Source of the DNA: Stylophora pistillata
Taxonomy: Eukaryota
Direction: 5' to 3'
NCBI RefSeq assembly: GCF_002571385.2
Contig: NW_019218118.1
Location: forward strand, 88,010 to 152,009
Length of the DNA stretch: 64,000 bases
Part shown: piece after piece, positions 11,084 through 50,834 of the stretch
Numbering within the stretch: position 1 is the first letter of the stretch
Layout of the letters: each line of letters starts with the position of its first letter
Translations under genes and position numbers: made by a program
The notes under the pieces: model-generated
Seen by the model: the letters and a program-made list of their open reading frames with translations, nothing else
Databases searched by the model: none
What the model was told of the DNA's origin: nothing

Positions 11084-11120
11084 ATTGGTTGTCGTCTACC
11101 GGAGAGTCGGGGGAATCCCC
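11084..11120. promoter_or_regulatory. Bidirectional promoter core: inverted CCAAT box + NF-kB site GGGGAATCCCC (11110-11120)
   Basis: Lies between divergent ATGs at 10973(-) and 11398(+). The same motif pair is in all four head-to-head spacers. Confidence 0.75.
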
Positions 11121-11397
11121 TTGTTGGATAGATCTCTAAAATAAGTTTTCTCAGTAACGTTTTATTCATGAACTGACAGGTTTCACTTTCGAAAGCTAAG
11201 GTACAAAGGGTACTACTCTATTCTTCAACTTCCTTAAGCGGAATTAGACTCAACCAAACACTGAAGGATACCAGTAAGATTTGTTCCGTTCTTTACCACA
11301 ACGACATAATTCATTTTGATCTTGTACAAGAAATAGACAAGTATACACTAATTGCGTTACTGTTGCGGTCAGCATTGCAGCAAATTTAGACTTTGGA

Positions 11398-14300
11398 ATG
11401 GGAAAGATTCTCTTTGTGATCGCTGTTGTTTGCCTACTGGTAAGTTGTTACTTCGAGTGAAATTAGAAAATTTGATGTTTCGATGGTAAATTCGAAATTA
11501 TTATAAATTCGATGCCTCAAAAGTTCTTATGACGCTCGAAGTAACAAAAAAAGTAGTTCCTGTTGTGGACTTTGTACGATTTTAGATCAGTCTAACAAAA
11601 TTCAACCGCCAAACCTATTCTGCTATCAAATTTCCGCGCATTAGACAATCGTCACTCTCGTTACGTCCAAGTAATATGCAGATGTTTCATCTTTCACCGG
11701 CATAATCAAGGTTTGGTCAGCTGCACTATCTATGCTTTTCAGTAAGAGTCACATCACAAAGTTTCATGTTTAAACATGAAACTTTTTAAAACATGCATAC
11801 AATTTTCTTCTTAACTCGTGCACCTCTATCCACCTTCGACTTCGCTACGTTTCAAACTTCCACCCATGTTATCATTTTTATTACAATATCAGCTCCGCTT
11901 GTGGGTGGAATTTGAATTTAATAGCGTCCAGTTAAATCATGTATTATTTATTGTAGCTTGAAATCTCTGAGATTTATCTTCAACGTTACTTTAGAAAATA
12001 TTTCATTTTATAACTATTTTTCATATACTTTCAGTTCAGTGTTTAGTGTGCCTTTTTTTAATATGAGGGAGAGTGCGTTTACGTCAGGGTAATCGTAATT
12101 TTCCATTTTTACCGTTCACTCGCGCGTTACTTTCAAAACAGAGTAACACAACACTCGCGGCTGGTTTCAATATTCCAATTATGCTAAGCTAAATGGATAG
12201 CCGGCCCATGGACTGTGCAGAGTGTTCTTTACGTTTTTCCATTTTCTGGTGAAAACCTAGAGTAATAATGAAAGTAGGTGAAAGTGTCATCGATTAGTAG
12301 GAGGGCTGTACTTGCAACTAGAGGTCCTAGGTCGAGTCTTGCAAATAGCTAACAGGATTGCCTTTCACCAGTTTGGTTCATAACCATGTCCTGTTGGTTT
12401 TTTTTAATCAATTGGATTTCTGATTTTCACGGTTGCATGCACCAGCCTTTGTCATGCTGAGAGTCAATAAATCATTTCTATTTATATCAAATTAATATTT
12501 TCAGAGCGAAAAAACCTGAGCAGTATTTATGTCTTCCTGCACAGACCATTTTGATTTTGACCTCTTTTATCATTTTATGATTTTTTAATCTCTACTATAG
12601 GTTAGGTCAGTGTCCTCAGTCATACTTTGTCAAGAAGACCATCATGGACATGGCCTTTCCCTGGTGCTTGACAGCATTACAACTCAAGCATTTAGCCTAG
12701 GATTCAGCCTTCTGATTCTTTACTTTGCAATTGTCTACTGTATTTTTTCATTTGACAGCAGTTTGGCCGACAGAAACCAGTCAGCGGACCGTTGTGAACC
12801 TAAACCTAAACAAAGAACACTAAATGCACAGTCTGGTGAGTGACAAGAGAAAAAAAGACATTTATTAAACGTACCCCTCTACTCTGACTTGATAATTAAG
12901 TTTAGTTTTCTAATATTATTTTTTAATTCTGTTAGCCTGCAAAAATGACGTGCTTTTTGAATATCCATTGCAACGAAGTGCTTCCCATATAGTATTTCAG
13001 AAGACTGGGGTGGAAGTGATAGAAGTGAAGGTTGCTAATGGATTGACACTCAAAGATAAGTGGATGCCGAGAAATTTGATGTTGCAAGCTTGCACTGAAG
13101 CAGTGCTGCCTGACCATCTACAGGAGGATGAATTGCCTCTAAGCCCAGTATATAAATTTGTTACTAGTGCTGCGAAGTTGGACAGACTCCTGGAAGTTTG
13201 GATACCTCATGGTGCAAACATTGTTTTGACAGGCGAAAACTGGAGCGTAATTTTAAAGGAGTATGTAAACCACACTTGGTTAACTGTTGGCGAAACTAGT
13301 AATTGCAACAAAACACAAGAATCAAAGAACTTTGTCTGTAAAAGCAATCATGTAAGATTGAAGACTGACCATTTGTCAACTTTCAAAATAACTGGGAAGT
13401 TTGATACATCTCAGTCGACTTTGGTGTTTAAAAGAATGAAGGTTGTAGCATTCTGCAATGAAACCAGAGTTGGAGACAACCTCATTGTGAGGCTTTACTG
13501 CTTCGATGATTGTGAATGGTCTTTTGAGGTATGTTTTCACTTCATATCATGATAACAAGACAGTACGGAGAGGAAAACAGCCATCGAAATTAGAATACTA
13601 GTTGACGGGCCATGTGCAGATGTGCACTCCATGCAAACAACATTTTAAACAAAAATGTTTTCATTTGTTTTGCGGAACCTTTGATGTAAGAATCTGGCAT
13701 GCTCCATCACTTTTTTTGTCAAGTAACAATATAATTTTTCGTTCCCCTTGAAAAAACTACAATCACTGAGTAACTTTAAGTTCGTGGTCTTTGCTTATTT
13801 TTAACGCTTATAGAGGATGATGCAAACGGAGCAGAAGAATGGAGGAAGACTCATGTCATCGATCGAATCTGTCAGCTTTTCTGTTACCGGCAAAAAAGAT
13901 GTTGACATATCTGTAAAAGATCCTGCAGGCTGGCATCTGAATAAGGCCTCCCCACTGGTATTGCCAAAAACTTGTCACTTGCATTCTTGAGCAGACCATT
14001 CATTAAAACTGTGTTGTATTCTTAATTCGACTTGTCTAGTTTTGTTCTTCTTTCGATTTGATTTGATTTTCATTTTTTATGAAGAGGAAATAAGAAGAGA
14101 GGAGCCTACATCAAATTCTGTAACTTTGGCTTTTCTCGTTAGCGTGATTTTAAAACAGGCTTCTCCTCTCATCGAAGGAATTTGCTTTTTTTTTTTAGGT
14201 ATTTTTCGTTAAGTTAATTCATTAGTTTTTTCCAGAAGTTGAAGAAATTTTCCGTGAAATTCTGACATAAGGTGAACTCTAATTTATTTTTTTCCTTTTA

Positions 14301-15517
14301 ATTCTAGAAGTTCAGCTATGATTCACTGAGGAATTCATTCAACGTCATTCCTCGGTGTGATCTGGTATTTAAACCTTGCAGGAAGGAACTAAGCACCAGC
14401 ATTTATTTGAAAATTGTATTAAGTCATGAACCATCTGATGAAACCATGATCTATGCATCTTCATCACTAAAACAGGTATAGAAATATCCAGCCCATACTT
14501 TAACTGTCTTTTCTTTTGCGGTTCGACAAATGTTCCTTAGTCCGGTCCGGCGAATGCTAACGCAAAGCGGGAGCACGGACGAGAAGGAGCAAGACAATGC
14601 AAACAAGAGTAAGGAATTATTCACATTTTTTGGGAAAGTTTGATTAATAGCAGGTGAACCCAGGAGTTTTGAGCTTTGACCTCCTAGAAACCGTAACTTG
14701 GAAGTAACACTTCATTTTGTGATTGTTTTCCTGTACGTGTCTCTGTCTACCTATCGCTGCTTGCATCCCAGATTTATTTAATAGATTCTTGAATCGCAGC
14801 CACACTAGTTAGCTCGTAGATCTATGAACACTGAAGAAACTTATGATCTCAGGAGTATATTTTTCCTAAATGAGATTAGCACTTATCCTTGCTTAAGTCC
14901 CTGGAATAAAATCTGTATTGGCGATTTTGCTGATGTTCAGGGTTGGGTTGTTGGAAAGCGGGTTAACGTTAATCTAGGATTAAAAGTTAACCTTGGCTTT
15001 AATTTCTCATATAGAAGAACATGCATGAGAGCTAAAGTTCTCCTTGAATCTATCTCATAATGACTTGAAACTAACTGGAAAATAATACAAATGAAAAATT
15101 CCTTTCCAAAGCTTTTTAAGTGAATTAGACCTTTACACTAATCCTGCGTTAGGTTAATCGAGTTTTGATCAACCCGATCCAGAGCGATGAAATTAGAGGT
15201 TTTGAACATCAGTTTCCAGAAAATAACTAAACTAATTGATGGATCTTTTTCGTAATTTTTCCTTAAAATTGTCAAAATAAATGCAGAAGAAATCTAAGGT
15301 CTTTTGTCAATTTGATACACTTGGACTTGTCAATTTCAATATATTTTCTCTGGTAGAGACTGTTTGAAGATCCTTCCATGAACGCATTTGAATATGATCA
15401 AGTGGAAGAGTAAGAGGCAAGTATTGAACGAGTAGCGCGATATAGATTTATATCATATCTTAACTATATCTTTTTTCTTATTTTCTTAGGTCATGCACGG
15501 AAATTTCCCAACCGTAA
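11398..15517 (+). CDS. Signal peptide-short ectodomain-TM-ZU5-UPA protein without death domain (~420 aa), copy A. Exons 11398-11439, 12601-12835, 12936-13528, 13814-13957, 14308-14475, 15357-15409, 15490-15517
   Basis: MGKILFVIAVVCLL signal exon; TM FSLGFSLLILYFAIVYCIFSF; ZU5 hallmarks LSPVYKF..LEVWIPHGA; UPA start KRMKVVAF..VRLYCFDD..EQKNGGRLM (UNC5-like). The last two exons are less certain but conserved in copy B. Confidence 0.8.
14938..15182. mobile_element. Degenerate MITE-like insertion (intronic)
   Basis: Imperfect inverted ends gggttgttggaaagcgggttaac / gttaatcgagttttgatcaacccg; no counterpart in copy B. Confidence 0.4.
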
Positions 15518-49800: not shown

Positions 49801-50518
49801 AAGCGCGGTAGAGTAAATTTACATGCGGTCTCTTTTCCGTTGGAAGTTTAACTGACCGTATTAAACGCGCAACGGAACAAAAGGTGTAGCATTCACAATG
49901 ATGGATAACACAACAATTTTTTTCACTTCAATTAAATACAAAAACATTGTCAACCCATACAATAGACCCATGCGATCTTTACTTACCAGATAATCCTTGT
50001 ATACCGACACCATTGGGTCGTCGAGTGGTCGATACAAATTCGCAGCGTTGACCACAAATTTCTTGTTGGGGAATATTTTTATCCTGCTGTTGAGAACTAG
50101 TTGATATCTGTAAAGATGTACCTCGGATAGGCTGTGCGAATCGATTTCTAAACCTTGAACGTTCATCAGGCTGACTGTGGGTTCTCATAGGAAGCTCGTC
50201 TAAATTTTCTAAACCTACGGGATGGATCAAAACCGGCTCCTTCATACGATCAAGGTATGGACATCCCTGCTTTTCATGCGAATGCTCCGACTCATGAAGT
50301 AAACCTTCTTCCCTGTCATCACTACTTCGCCGGACATGTGCGTGGTGTGAATTACTGTAAGGTCTAGAAAAACGGCCGGTCGCCTCAGCTGGTGATTGAT
50401 CTATTCCTAATGAGGAGGACCACAAATTCATCGCTGAGGTTGCTTCTTCCAAGGTTTGTAGTCCATTATTATCAGCTACAGTACCAGTGTTATAGTGAGG
50501 ATTCTCTTTATCGTCCAT
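46868..50518 (-). CDS. Disordered N-terminus + UPA-like + CARD, copy B (~448 aa). Exons 50518-49987, 49525-49401, 49163-48984, 48304-48131, 47597-47552, 47157-46868
   Basis: CARD MPDEDREVLRSCHVSLLENIGNPISVCDHLYQHKIFD..; FLFKRGIIARDD..LYIIPV; same exon phases as copy A. Confidence 0.82.
48319..48490 (-). repeat. Inverted copy of 51234-51406 (receptor 5' intron end, acceptor and ATG) inside a CARD-gene intron
   Basis: Reverse complement matches almost exactly; a direct repeat (48248-48320 / 48638-48710) surrounds the inserted region. Confidence 0.88.
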
Positions 50519-50786
50519 GCGTCTAGTTCAAGGAAACGGAAGGAAGATCAAACAGCCACGATAGAGCTTTTAAGTTATTTTTGAACCCAATACTTCGAAG
50601 ATCTATTCCTTACACAAACAAGCTCAGTTCCAAAATGAATTTTCCTAGCATTTGCATTCGTATGTACGTTTGTAGAAAATGTTTTGCAAAGCACTTTCGG
50701 TTTCCGTAAAGGAGTGCCATTTTGGGCCATTCACAGCTTGAATTGCTAACCACGTGAATGGAATTTGCTTTGAGCAAGACTAAGTG

Positions 50787-50834
50787 ATTGGTCTACGAGT
50801 GCTGTGTTTGGTGGTCATGTGAGGGGGAAACCCC
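50787..50834. promoter_or_regulatory. Inverted CCAAT + NF-kB site GGGGAAACCCC (50824-50834)
   Basis: Same position relative to the divergent genes as 23180-23228, despite diverged flanks. Confidence 0.72.

Follow-up and report, generated by a model that had tools for sequence, protein, structure and literature searches.

CCAAT and palindromic kB motifs in the intergenic spacers of a TNF receptor gene array in the coral Stylophora pistillata

Related promoters and gene pairs

In human immune genes, kB sites occur together with CCAAT or IRF elements, as in the bidirectional TAP1/PSMB9 promoter and in enhancer A and the Y box of MHC class I, and in one of these cases kB control acts in both directions, like the arrangement proposed here for the spacers of a coral gene array; the human genes are, however, unrelated to the coral pair and no homology is implied. 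The NF-Y-regulated head-to-head promoter of PRR11-SKA2 likewise combines a short spacer, divergent genes and CCAAT boxes, but in the accessible text it serves mammalian cell-cycle genes without kB sites (PMC5372550), whereas the coral genes form an immune receptor pair.

Directly validated cnidarian NF-kB targets are few; Nematostella TRAF3 is an example. This gene of the TNFR pathway has G-rich kB sites close to its 5' end, and one EMSA probe in the accessible part of that report has the same 10-mer core as the fourth coral site (PMC10329013). There, a single gene carries three sites supported by EMSA and reporter assays; each coral spacer, in contrast, has one site beside a CCAAT box between two divergent genes, with conservation as its support. 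The RLRb-CARDIB pair of anthozoans is also a conserved case of an immune receptor linked to a CARD gene, but in the available portion of the preprint the CARD member consists of a CARD alone and represses a cytosolic RNA sensor (bioRxiv 2025.11.22.689925), whereas the coral pair comprises a membrane TNFR and a protein with a UPA-like domain and a CARD.

At the coral locus, a promoter of known type serves a receptor-adaptor pair that is apparently undescribed, and a literature search, mostly outside subscription journals, found nothing on the pair or the cassette. NF-kB and TNFR genes recur in work on heat stress and symbiosis; the array offers a naturally replicated test promoter of less than 0.5 kb, with a conserved site whose core has high affinity in vitro for anemone NF-kB.

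Gene pairs and spacers of the array

The window, a stretch of 64,000 nucleotides of the S. pistillata genome (contig NW_019218118.1, positions 88,010 to 152,009), contains four cassettes, each located between a minus-strand gene for a disordered, UPA-like protein with or without a CARD and a plus-strand TNFR-family gene with ZU5 and UPA domains, with or without a death domain. At spacers 1, 2, and 4 the genes are head-to-head and less than 1 kb apart, with CT..AC joints to the left and GT..AG joints to the right, and the distance from start codon to first donor is 428-466 bp. Intact spacers measure 0.3-0.47 kb and stay below 0.5 kb in all lineages seen.

Gene A (P0107, LOC111337442; 8626-10973, minus strand), supported by RNA-contig splice joints, a gene model and homolog search, encodes 351 aa comprising a disordered N terminus and a UPA-like domain without CARD. 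It is homologous to gene C of the other pair (hhalign 95.8%, E 6.9e-9); its AlphaFold model is unreliable (pLDDT 29). Gene B (11398-15413, plus strand; model with canonical splice sites) is predicted to encode 412 aa with a signal-like exon, a transmembrane segment, ZU5 and UPA, and lacks cysteine-rich and death domains. Its joint 13956/14307 is present in RNA contigs of all four runs, while exon 1 is a prediction whose joint is absent from the listed RNA-contig joints. The ZU5 domain gives a weak Pfam match (E 0.019), and the ZU5 exons of B and D are 30% identical.

Gene C (P0015, LOC111337446; 19131-22918, minus strand), with a gene model and five introns in RNA contigs, encodes 439 aa: about 160 disordered residues, a UPA-like domain and a C-terminal CARD (PF00619, E 5.5e-10). 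Its contigs, which cannot mark starts, extend to 23020-23055, 124-159 bp short of the CCAAT box; NF-Y CCAAT boxes are expected 60-100 bp upstream of the start site. The structure model places before the CARD a beta-sandwich of low confidence (pLDDT 35-80, no Pfam UPA match), and Foldseek ranks the UNC5B cytoplasmic domain as its top match (E 2.9e-4); the CARD matches Apaf-1/caspase-9 (Z 13.7). For gene C, Atlas features indicate FIIND/UPA at 0.81, which is no more than a lead. Comparison of the A and C profiles with the receptor family, including the receptor's own UPA, by Pfam and profile methods found nothing, and the predicted UPA identity of the domain in A and C is of low confidence. In its C-terminal CARD, protein C resembles the UPA-CARD fragment of CARD8/NLRP1; unlike their FIIND, it has no detectable ZU5, the domain with the self-cleavage site, and is a free-standing gene rather than a cleavage product. 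Residues 1-165 are of low complexity (pLDDT <50) and gave no ZU5 or FIIND match at E up to 1.

Gene D (P0005, LOC111337445; 23334-29876, plus strand, the left end being the first-exon ATG and not a mapped start) is supported by RNA-contig joints and Pfam. It combines TNFR cysteine-rich repeats, a transmembrane segment and a ZU5-UPA-death domain tail of the UNC5B/PIDD type; unlike UNC5B, it carries TNFR repeats outside, not Ig/TSP domains. A complex prediction for the D ZU5-UPA and the C UPA-like domain, run without alignments and with an uncertain partner fold, scored 0.00 and gives no answer.

Both pairs have copies further along the window. Gene A' (P0108; 38798-41149, left end approximate, minus strand; gene model and homolog search) is 79% identical to A. 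Gene B' (41760-45450, right end approximate, plus strand; partial RNA-contig cover) is a 5'-truncated copy of B without the first exon. A high-copy repeat (41317-41575; second copy at 55016-55279) begins 31 bp to the right of site 3, where 1.3 kb with B exon 1 would be, and no copy of that exon was found at the spacer 3 locus. The sequence-only reading had called all four spacers bidirectional; in layout this holds for spacers 1, 2, and 4 but not for spacer 3, which no longer has a divergent first exon on each side, its plus-strand one being replaced by the repeat. Gene C' (46868-50518, minus strand) is an open frame of 448 aa with UPA-like domain and CARD. Gene D' (50945-57517, left end approximate, plus strand; RNA-contig joints and model) has an open frame of 785 aa running from the large cysteine-rich exon to the stop. 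Spacer 4 is spanned in full by one contig of a run whose RNA origin is a guess, so this spacer may be read through.

The spacers had also been described as poorly alignable and AT-rich. The former is true across the two types, since spacer 1 against 2 and 4 gives z of -0.1 and -1.1 relative to shuffles, but not within a type, where spacer 1 matches 3 with z 13 (81% up to the site) and spacer 2 matches 4 with z 10.5. The latter fails: the GC content of spacers 1, 2, and 4 is 39-43%, above the 36.8% of the window.

The cassette and its conservation

Each cassette consists of a GATTGG word (11083, 23179, 41257, and 50786) followed by a kB 11-mer, GGGGAATCCCC at 11110, 23218, and 41275 and GGGGAAACCCC at 50824, with gaps of 21, 33, 12, and 32 bp in spacers 1-4; the positions and the 12-33 bp range given before are thereby confirmed. 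The CCAAT boxes (11082-11090, 23178-23186, 41256-41264, and 50785-50793, all minus strand and assigned by motif match) match the minus-strand 9-mer RRCCAATCA and the NF-Y consensus RRCCAATSR in all four cases, against a background for this consensus of 0.028 per shuffled spacer. All four kB sites (11110-11120, 23218-23228, 41275-41285, and 50824-50834, the last with centre AAA) have the p50/p52-type layout of two G4/C4 half-sites 3 bp apart, and base changes between homologous sites are confined to the central three bases. Order and polarity are fixed: the CCAAT box reads towards the UPA-like gene, A at spacer 1 and C at spacer 2, and the kB site is nearer the receptor. In spacer 3 the gap is 9 bp shorter, which corresponds to one of the units of a doubled site present in the upstream copy.

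The whole cassette, CCAAT plus GGGG-N3-CCCC, occurs four times in the window against 0.00 expected, although the four are not independent, being duplicates of one another. The word GGGGNNNCCCC occurs five times against 0.12 expected, a count reached in none of 100 shuffles; the fifth occurrence, at 7813, lies within a 3' UTR region.

The cassette might be a relic that recent duplications carried along passively, or it might belong to a repeat. Same-type spacers are 87-93% alike, and copies with frameshifted genes upstream and downstream of the window still hold the cassette, as such a relic would. However, blastn of spacers 2 and 4 found, on the contig, no match but each spacer's own paralog, GGGGNNNCCCC is absent from 179 kb of control flanks, and the cassette is common to unalignable spacers and distant corals. 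Nine loci were found in other corals by protein alone, of which three with less than 400 bp upstream were dropped and six with at least 1.9 kb were usable. The 11-mer is in the same place at five of these six, the sole one of its form per locus, 102-116 bp before the donor site and 196-243 bp from the divergent start codon. Four of the five also carry a CCAAT box 20-23 bp from it; locus L035 has none. Locus L028 has neither motif nor partner within 2.26 kb. The loci with the 11-mer are spread over either side of the tree, some of them close to Oculina and others grouped with Acropora/Montipora at 100/99. Among six spacers cut by gene landmarks, three from the window and three from other corals, the only 8-letter words common to all were kB words, and none of 200 shuffled sets reached six. 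This cross-species footprint largely refutes the passive-relic reading, which is hardly credible. Because the two spacer types are unalignable yet share both motifs, and because the 11-mer recurs at five of six other-coral loci, the kB site is, as far as sequence comparison can tell, under selection. The motif survived duplication, as had been proposed, and from further back than claimed, given the homology of A and C, the B and D ZU5 exons and the other corals.

Other candidate elements were less consistent. A GAAA-NN-GAAA word resembling an ISRE occurs in spacers 2 (23089-23098, minus strand) and 4 (50695-50704, minus strand), in both at 129 bp to the left of the kB site; it is a lead only and is not kept in other corals. 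A search of the spacers for an ER-stress element (CCAAT-N9-CCAC), a TATA box and a GC box found none. An E-box-like word next to or between the motifs is not a general feature, being present in 6 of 11 spacers, and GAAACA, common to six of six, varies in position and is probably a chance match.

Of 11 GATTGG+kB composites on other contigs of this genome, five are located immediately 5' of A20, IRF, TNFR-ZU5 and TNFR-death domain genes or in a further head-to-head pair (Pfam scans covered the seven longest frames of at least 70 aa per locus, 81 of 150 frames). CCAATC+kB occurs 15 times against 3.5 expected, five of the 15 in a STING array. A short list of further candidate NF-kB targets results: A20, IRF, STING and TNFRs. 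When 20 plain kB sites were sampled systematically, four were beside TNFR, STING or UPA genes, against zero or one of 20 controls (p 0.053 or 0.17), and CpG content at the sampled sites was not above that of random places (p 0.18). A reversed-pattern control for the 11-mer (162 against 225) was discarded as an unfair background, since by eye one repeat tail accounts for about 17 of the 20 control sites sampled. Upstream of F-type TNFRs, kB-like 11-mers seem to belong to a repeat and were left out of the counts.

The 11-mer is not specific to bidirectional spacers, since it also precedes STING genes and TNFR genes without a partner seen (contigs 162947 and 237898, C61, and C97), and its retention may therefore serve the receptor alone. 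The kB site would then act on the receptor, with the CCAAT box giving the UPA-like gene steady expression, and the two genes would be neighbours that are not co-induced. Consistent with this, the kB site of C/D-type spacers is 102-126 bp from the receptor's first donor (118 bp in spacer 2, 126 bp to the inferred donor of D' in spacer 4), with the partner start codon further off. The two motifs are also lost separately among three further pairs on contig C301, one without a CCAAT box and one without an intact 11-mer, and RLRb and CARDIB, although linked, show divergent expression upon challenge, according to the accessible part of the preprint (bioRxiv 2025.11.22.689925). At a further receptor, on C630, no UPA-like partner was found to the left, where 3 kb are N. 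Yet in spacer 1 the kB site is nearer the start codon of A (137 bp) than the donor of B (319 bp), site 3 is still perfect though the receptor-side first exon is gone, and the spacers have remained short in every lineage seen. Receptor-only control is a serious contender, though on the unlikely side, and the kB site probably drives both directions.

NF-kB binding and proposed output

One RHD locus is present in this genome, on contig C125, with the recognition loop CEGPSHGG, which we take to be of the p50 class; cnidarian NF-kB had been expected to be p50/p52-like, and the loop in this genome agrees with that. No perfect kB site was found within 20 kb upstream of the RHD exon. In published PBM data, on arrays that carried 10-mer cores rather than the exact 11-mers and with anemone, not S. 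pistillata, proteins, GGGAATCCCC gave z of 14.7 for Aiptasia and 13.7/14.6 for Nematostella NF-kB, GGGAAACCCC gave 10.6 and the palindrome GGGAATTCCC 12.0, the Aiptasia range for 10-mer cores being 10.2-14.7 (PMC5700166, supplementary data). The proposal of a p50-type kB site agrees with this strong in vitro binding of the cores. The TRAF3 sites of Nematostella that were bound in EMSA include GGGAAACCCC, and joint mutation of those sites abolished reporter activation, in the accessible part of the report (PMC10329013). The coral kB sites are very probably functional NF-kB sites.

A repressor could instead occupy the site, either a processed homodimer of NF-kB that lacks an activation domain or a zinc-finger protein of the Schnurri/HIVEP type, keeping the death-signalling pair low until relieved. 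p50-type dimers can indeed repress. The composite, however, precedes A20, a classic induced feedback gene. HIVEP1 and Schnurri-2 bind kB-type sites, according to the accessible parts of two reports (PMC8602905, PMC3682135), but reporter assays show activation by Nematostella NF-kB of a promoter that contains such a site, as far as the available text goes (PMC10329013). Repression is an improbable account of the site.

Since the CCAAT and kB motifs persist in spacers that have otherwise diverged, receptor and partner are likely co-switched by NF-kB. On balance we lean towards an intact spacer being a shared promoter at which NF-kB, with help from NF-Y, would induce both genes. NF-Y would keep the spacer open and NF-kB would supply the inducible step. 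For C/D, the receptor would be made together with a likely cytoplasmic adaptor; the A/B pair, without both death-fold domains and the ligand-binding repeats, would be a likely dampening copy under the same switch. The uncharacterised receptor-adaptor pair may show a pre-vertebrate wiring of UPA-based death signalling to TNF receptors.

A broader synthesis, which as a whole is rather doubtful, would make the array an old coral receptor-adaptor unit, in which a TNFR with an UNC5/PIDD-type tail and a free-standing UPA-CARD protein are expressed from the same NF-kB/NF-Y switch. The UPA-CARD protein, resembling the released CARD8/NLRP1 effector fragment, would link the receptor to a CARD caspase, and the sister pair without both death-fold domains would be a co-induced decoy. 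CCAAT and kB in helical phase, with gaps near 10, 20, and 32 bp, would then be a code shared generally by the immune promoters of corals, those of A20, IRF and STING among them. In post hoc comparisons, the three gap states in the family gave p 0.06 for phasing, and in the forward-CCAAT set the gap was 18-21 bp in 6 of 10 cases (Rayleigh p 0.006, paralogs collapsed).

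Head-to-head gene pairs and their spacers

The window (G000:C334:88010-152009) is part of a TNF-receptor cluster of a 398 Mb genome, where about 27–30 kb is duplicated with 70–87% identity. Spacers 1 to 4 separate the minus-strand UPA-like genes A, C, A' and C' from the plus-strand TNFR-family ZU5-UPA genes B, D, B' and D', respectively. This head-to-head layout and the splicing of the genes are established: in contigs from four runs (three recorded as RNA, one guessed to be RNA), spacers 1 and 2 are each flanked by minus-strand introns on the left and by plus-strand introns on the right, and the D' joint 51443/52258 occurs in all three RNA-type runs and is absent from the fourth, DNA-like run. 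The reading frames of C' and D' are open. An element inserted in a C' intron (48246–48711), where 75 bp of exon sequence is duplicated, has an inverted 95–98% copy in the first D' intron (51234–51419), adjoining the exon spliced to 52258 in the RNA contigs.

Gene D codes for a TNFR-TM-ZU5-UPA-death domain protein, and related proteins occur in Oculina, Acropora and Montipora. In the stretches 23334–23345 and 23730–23803, the first-exon ATG of D opens a five-codon frame when exon 2 is included and is in frame when exon 2 is skipped; both isoforms are listed by sources (P0005, P0056), and neither start resembles a strong signal peptide. The 439 aa product of C comprises 160 disordered residues, a beta-rich domain and a CARD. 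Since the top Foldseek match of its model is the ZU5-UPA-DD tail of UNC5B (E 2.9e-4) and its Atlas features suggest UPA/FIIND at 0.81, this beta-rich domain is likely UPA-like. Within the disordered N terminus, distant corals retain a short motif (residues 54–74) but not the sequence on either side of it. Gene A (351 aa) lacks the CARD and is homologous to C across 158 columns (95.8%, E 6.9e-9). Gene B is predicted to encode a 412 aa TM-ZU5-UPA protein without cysteine-rich repeats or a death domain; the ZU5 exons of B and D share 30% identity. The B ZU5 ends (approximately 13400–13450) in His-Leu-Ser, resembling the PIDD self-cleavage motif, and its D counterpart in Leu-Thr-Ser. The A–C homology, the likeness of the B and D ZU5 domains and the C'/D' copies indicate that the A/B and C/D types arose by an old duplication and that the block was copied by a later one. 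Judging by equal sequence lengths, proteins of the C, A and C' types are apparently located on one scaffold in Pocillopora, and C- and D-type proteins on one contig in Montipora.

The cassette, a CCAAT box (GATTGG on the plus strand) followed by a kB 11-mer (GGGG-N3-CCCC), was recovered in each spacer, with the 11-mers at 11110, 23218, 41275 and 50824 and gaps of 21, 33, 12 and 32 bp. The window contains GGGGNNNCCCC five times versus 0.12 in shuffles, and the full cassette four times versus 0.00. The sequence-only reading had described the spacers as AT-rich, which does not hold (39–43% GC versus 36.8% for the window), and as poorly alignable, which is true of spacer 1 against 2 or 4 but not of same-type copies, which align well. 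Its statement that all four are bidirectional fails at spacer 3, where a high-copy repeat, beginning 31 bp right of the kB site, replaced 1.3 kb including the B first exon; blastn matched this exon only in spacer 1 and an upstream copy. Remnants resembling retroelements lie between gene pairs at 16056–16643 and 30249–31475.

Conservation of the cassette

Conservation of the motifs is established within the genome and in other corals. Spacer 1 does not align with spacers 2 and 4 beyond shuffles (z -0.1 and -1.1), yet shares both motifs with them in equal order and polarity. The only 8-letter words common to all six spacers cut at gene landmarks are kB words, and none of 200 shuffled sets reached six. 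Nine spacers of this kind were seen in the genome: the six on contig C334 all carry both motifs, two of them adjoining frameshifted genes, while the three on C301 carry both motifs (a pair found via the motif), kB only, and CCAAT with a degenerate kB (both found via neighbourhood). Outside the window, A/B and C/D copies with frameshifts and an inversion occupy G000:C334:38000-84000 and 192000-207000; the upstream spacer has a doubled kB site. The second stretch of the TNFR cluster, with the three further pairs (G000:C301:791-53000; L123, L124, L116, L125-L127), matches window positions 1–3300 at 94% identity over its initial 3.4 kb and so could represent either a haplotype or an adjacent duplicate.

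A protein-only scan of metagenome contigs yielded nine D-family loci from other corals, three with less than 400 bp upstream and six usable. Exactly one kB 11-mer was present in five of these six, 102–116 bp before a donor site and 196–243 bp from a divergent open frame. The divergent partner exons encode UPA-like and CARD domains at L031 and L035 and a UPA-like domain at L032; L027 and L029 gave a weak first-exon match. All kB-bearing loci except L035 also have a CCAAT box (4/5). Neither motif nor partner was found within 2.26 kb at the repeat-rich L028. As L027/L029 and L031/L032 are close pairs, the kB-bearing loci represent about three lineages. A receptor-exon tree places L027-L029 close to Oculina, and a group of Acropora and Montipora (100/99) takes in L030-L033 and L035, although in such a gene tree paralogs may be mixed.

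NF-kB as the candidate factor and its proposed mode of action

The genome contains one RHD locus, with a CEGPSHGG loop. In protein-binding microarrays the z-score of the core GGGAATCCCC was 14.7 for Aiptasia NF-kB and 13.7/14.6 for the Nematostella protein, higher than that of the palindrome GGGAATTCCC (12.0); GGGAAACCCC scored 10.6 (PMC5700166). Among the listed rows of 803 ranked for Nematostella p50, one-base neighbours of the 11-mers are first, second and fourth, and the exact 11-mers are absent (PMC3630861). In the TRAF3 promoter of Nematostella, one of three sites shares its core with site 4 and was bound in EMSA, and mutation of all three abolished reporter activation (PMC10329013). The 11-mer is real and conserved and has good support as an NF-kB site, the binding evidence coming from anemone proteins.

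Most likely, NF-Y and NF-kB share one compact promoter, with NF-kB raising transcription in both directions, so that the cassette would act as a two-way switch. The receptor would then be produced together with a partner that may connect a CARD caspase with the receptor's ZU5-UPA tail; the A/B pair, devoid of death folds, could act as a decoy damping the signal. The chief alternative is a kB site that acts for the receptor alone. A good kB site need not dominate, as most cGAMP-induced genes of Nematostella were unchanged after NF-kB knock-down (PMC8713801). Among known systems, kB sites occur in cnidarian TNFR-pathway promoters (PMC10329013), CCAAT boxes in head-to-head promoters, and RLRb-CARDIB is an established conserved linkage of a receptor with a CARD gene. 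A literature search that covered few subscription journals found no paper on this gene pair or cassette, nor any mention of it in passages of PMC8195603.

CCAAT and kB sites elsewhere in the genome

In total, 225 copies of the 11-mer are present genome-wide. In a sample of 20, taken as one in five from the top 100 of the list, four sites precede TNFR, TNFR-DD, STING or UPA exons, versus 0/20 controls, or 1/20 counting a Mab-21 gene (p 0.053 and 0.17), which is only suggestive of enrichment. The CCAAT+kB composite gives a sharper signal. GATTGG with kB has 17 matches, six on C334. Among the 11 on other contigs, five are directly 5' of A20, IRF, TNFR-ZU5 or TNFR-DD genes or within a further pair, one precedes a fibrinogen-domain gene, and five yielded no such neighbour. 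For CCAATC with kB, 3.5 matches were expected and 15 were found; a STING array accounts for five, and two of the other ten have a Pfam-named downstream gene (Maf, death-domain). At two more distant TNFR genes on C334, a kB site that lacks a CCAAT box lies some 190 bp upstream of a signal-like exon. Given these sites before A20, IRF, STING and TNFR genes, the module is a feature of immune promoters in this genome, not only of bidirectional ones.

Most of the tandem STING genes (G000:C69:317000-358369; L059, L090, L091, L092) have a forward CCAAT and a kB 11-mer 10–20 bp apart, just 5' of the frame. An A20-like gene with OTU and A20 fingers (L113:4980-5040, G000:C77) has GATTGG, the 11-mer and, 2 bp on, a kB-like word; the human A20 promoter has two adjacent kB sites. 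GATTGG and the 11-mer lie about 160 bp upstream of an IRF frame (L119:4975-5200, G000:C614). Nine 11-mers cluster on G000:C47 (L053, L093-L095), those examined mostly directly after an ATGCAA(A)T word; the genes beside them had no Pfam match. On G000:C153 (L066, L105), kB sites lie between the members of a small Maf bZIP gene array that runs in both orientations, and repeated ZU5/UPA-type genes on G000:C77 (L060, L096, L097) are each preceded by the 11-mer.
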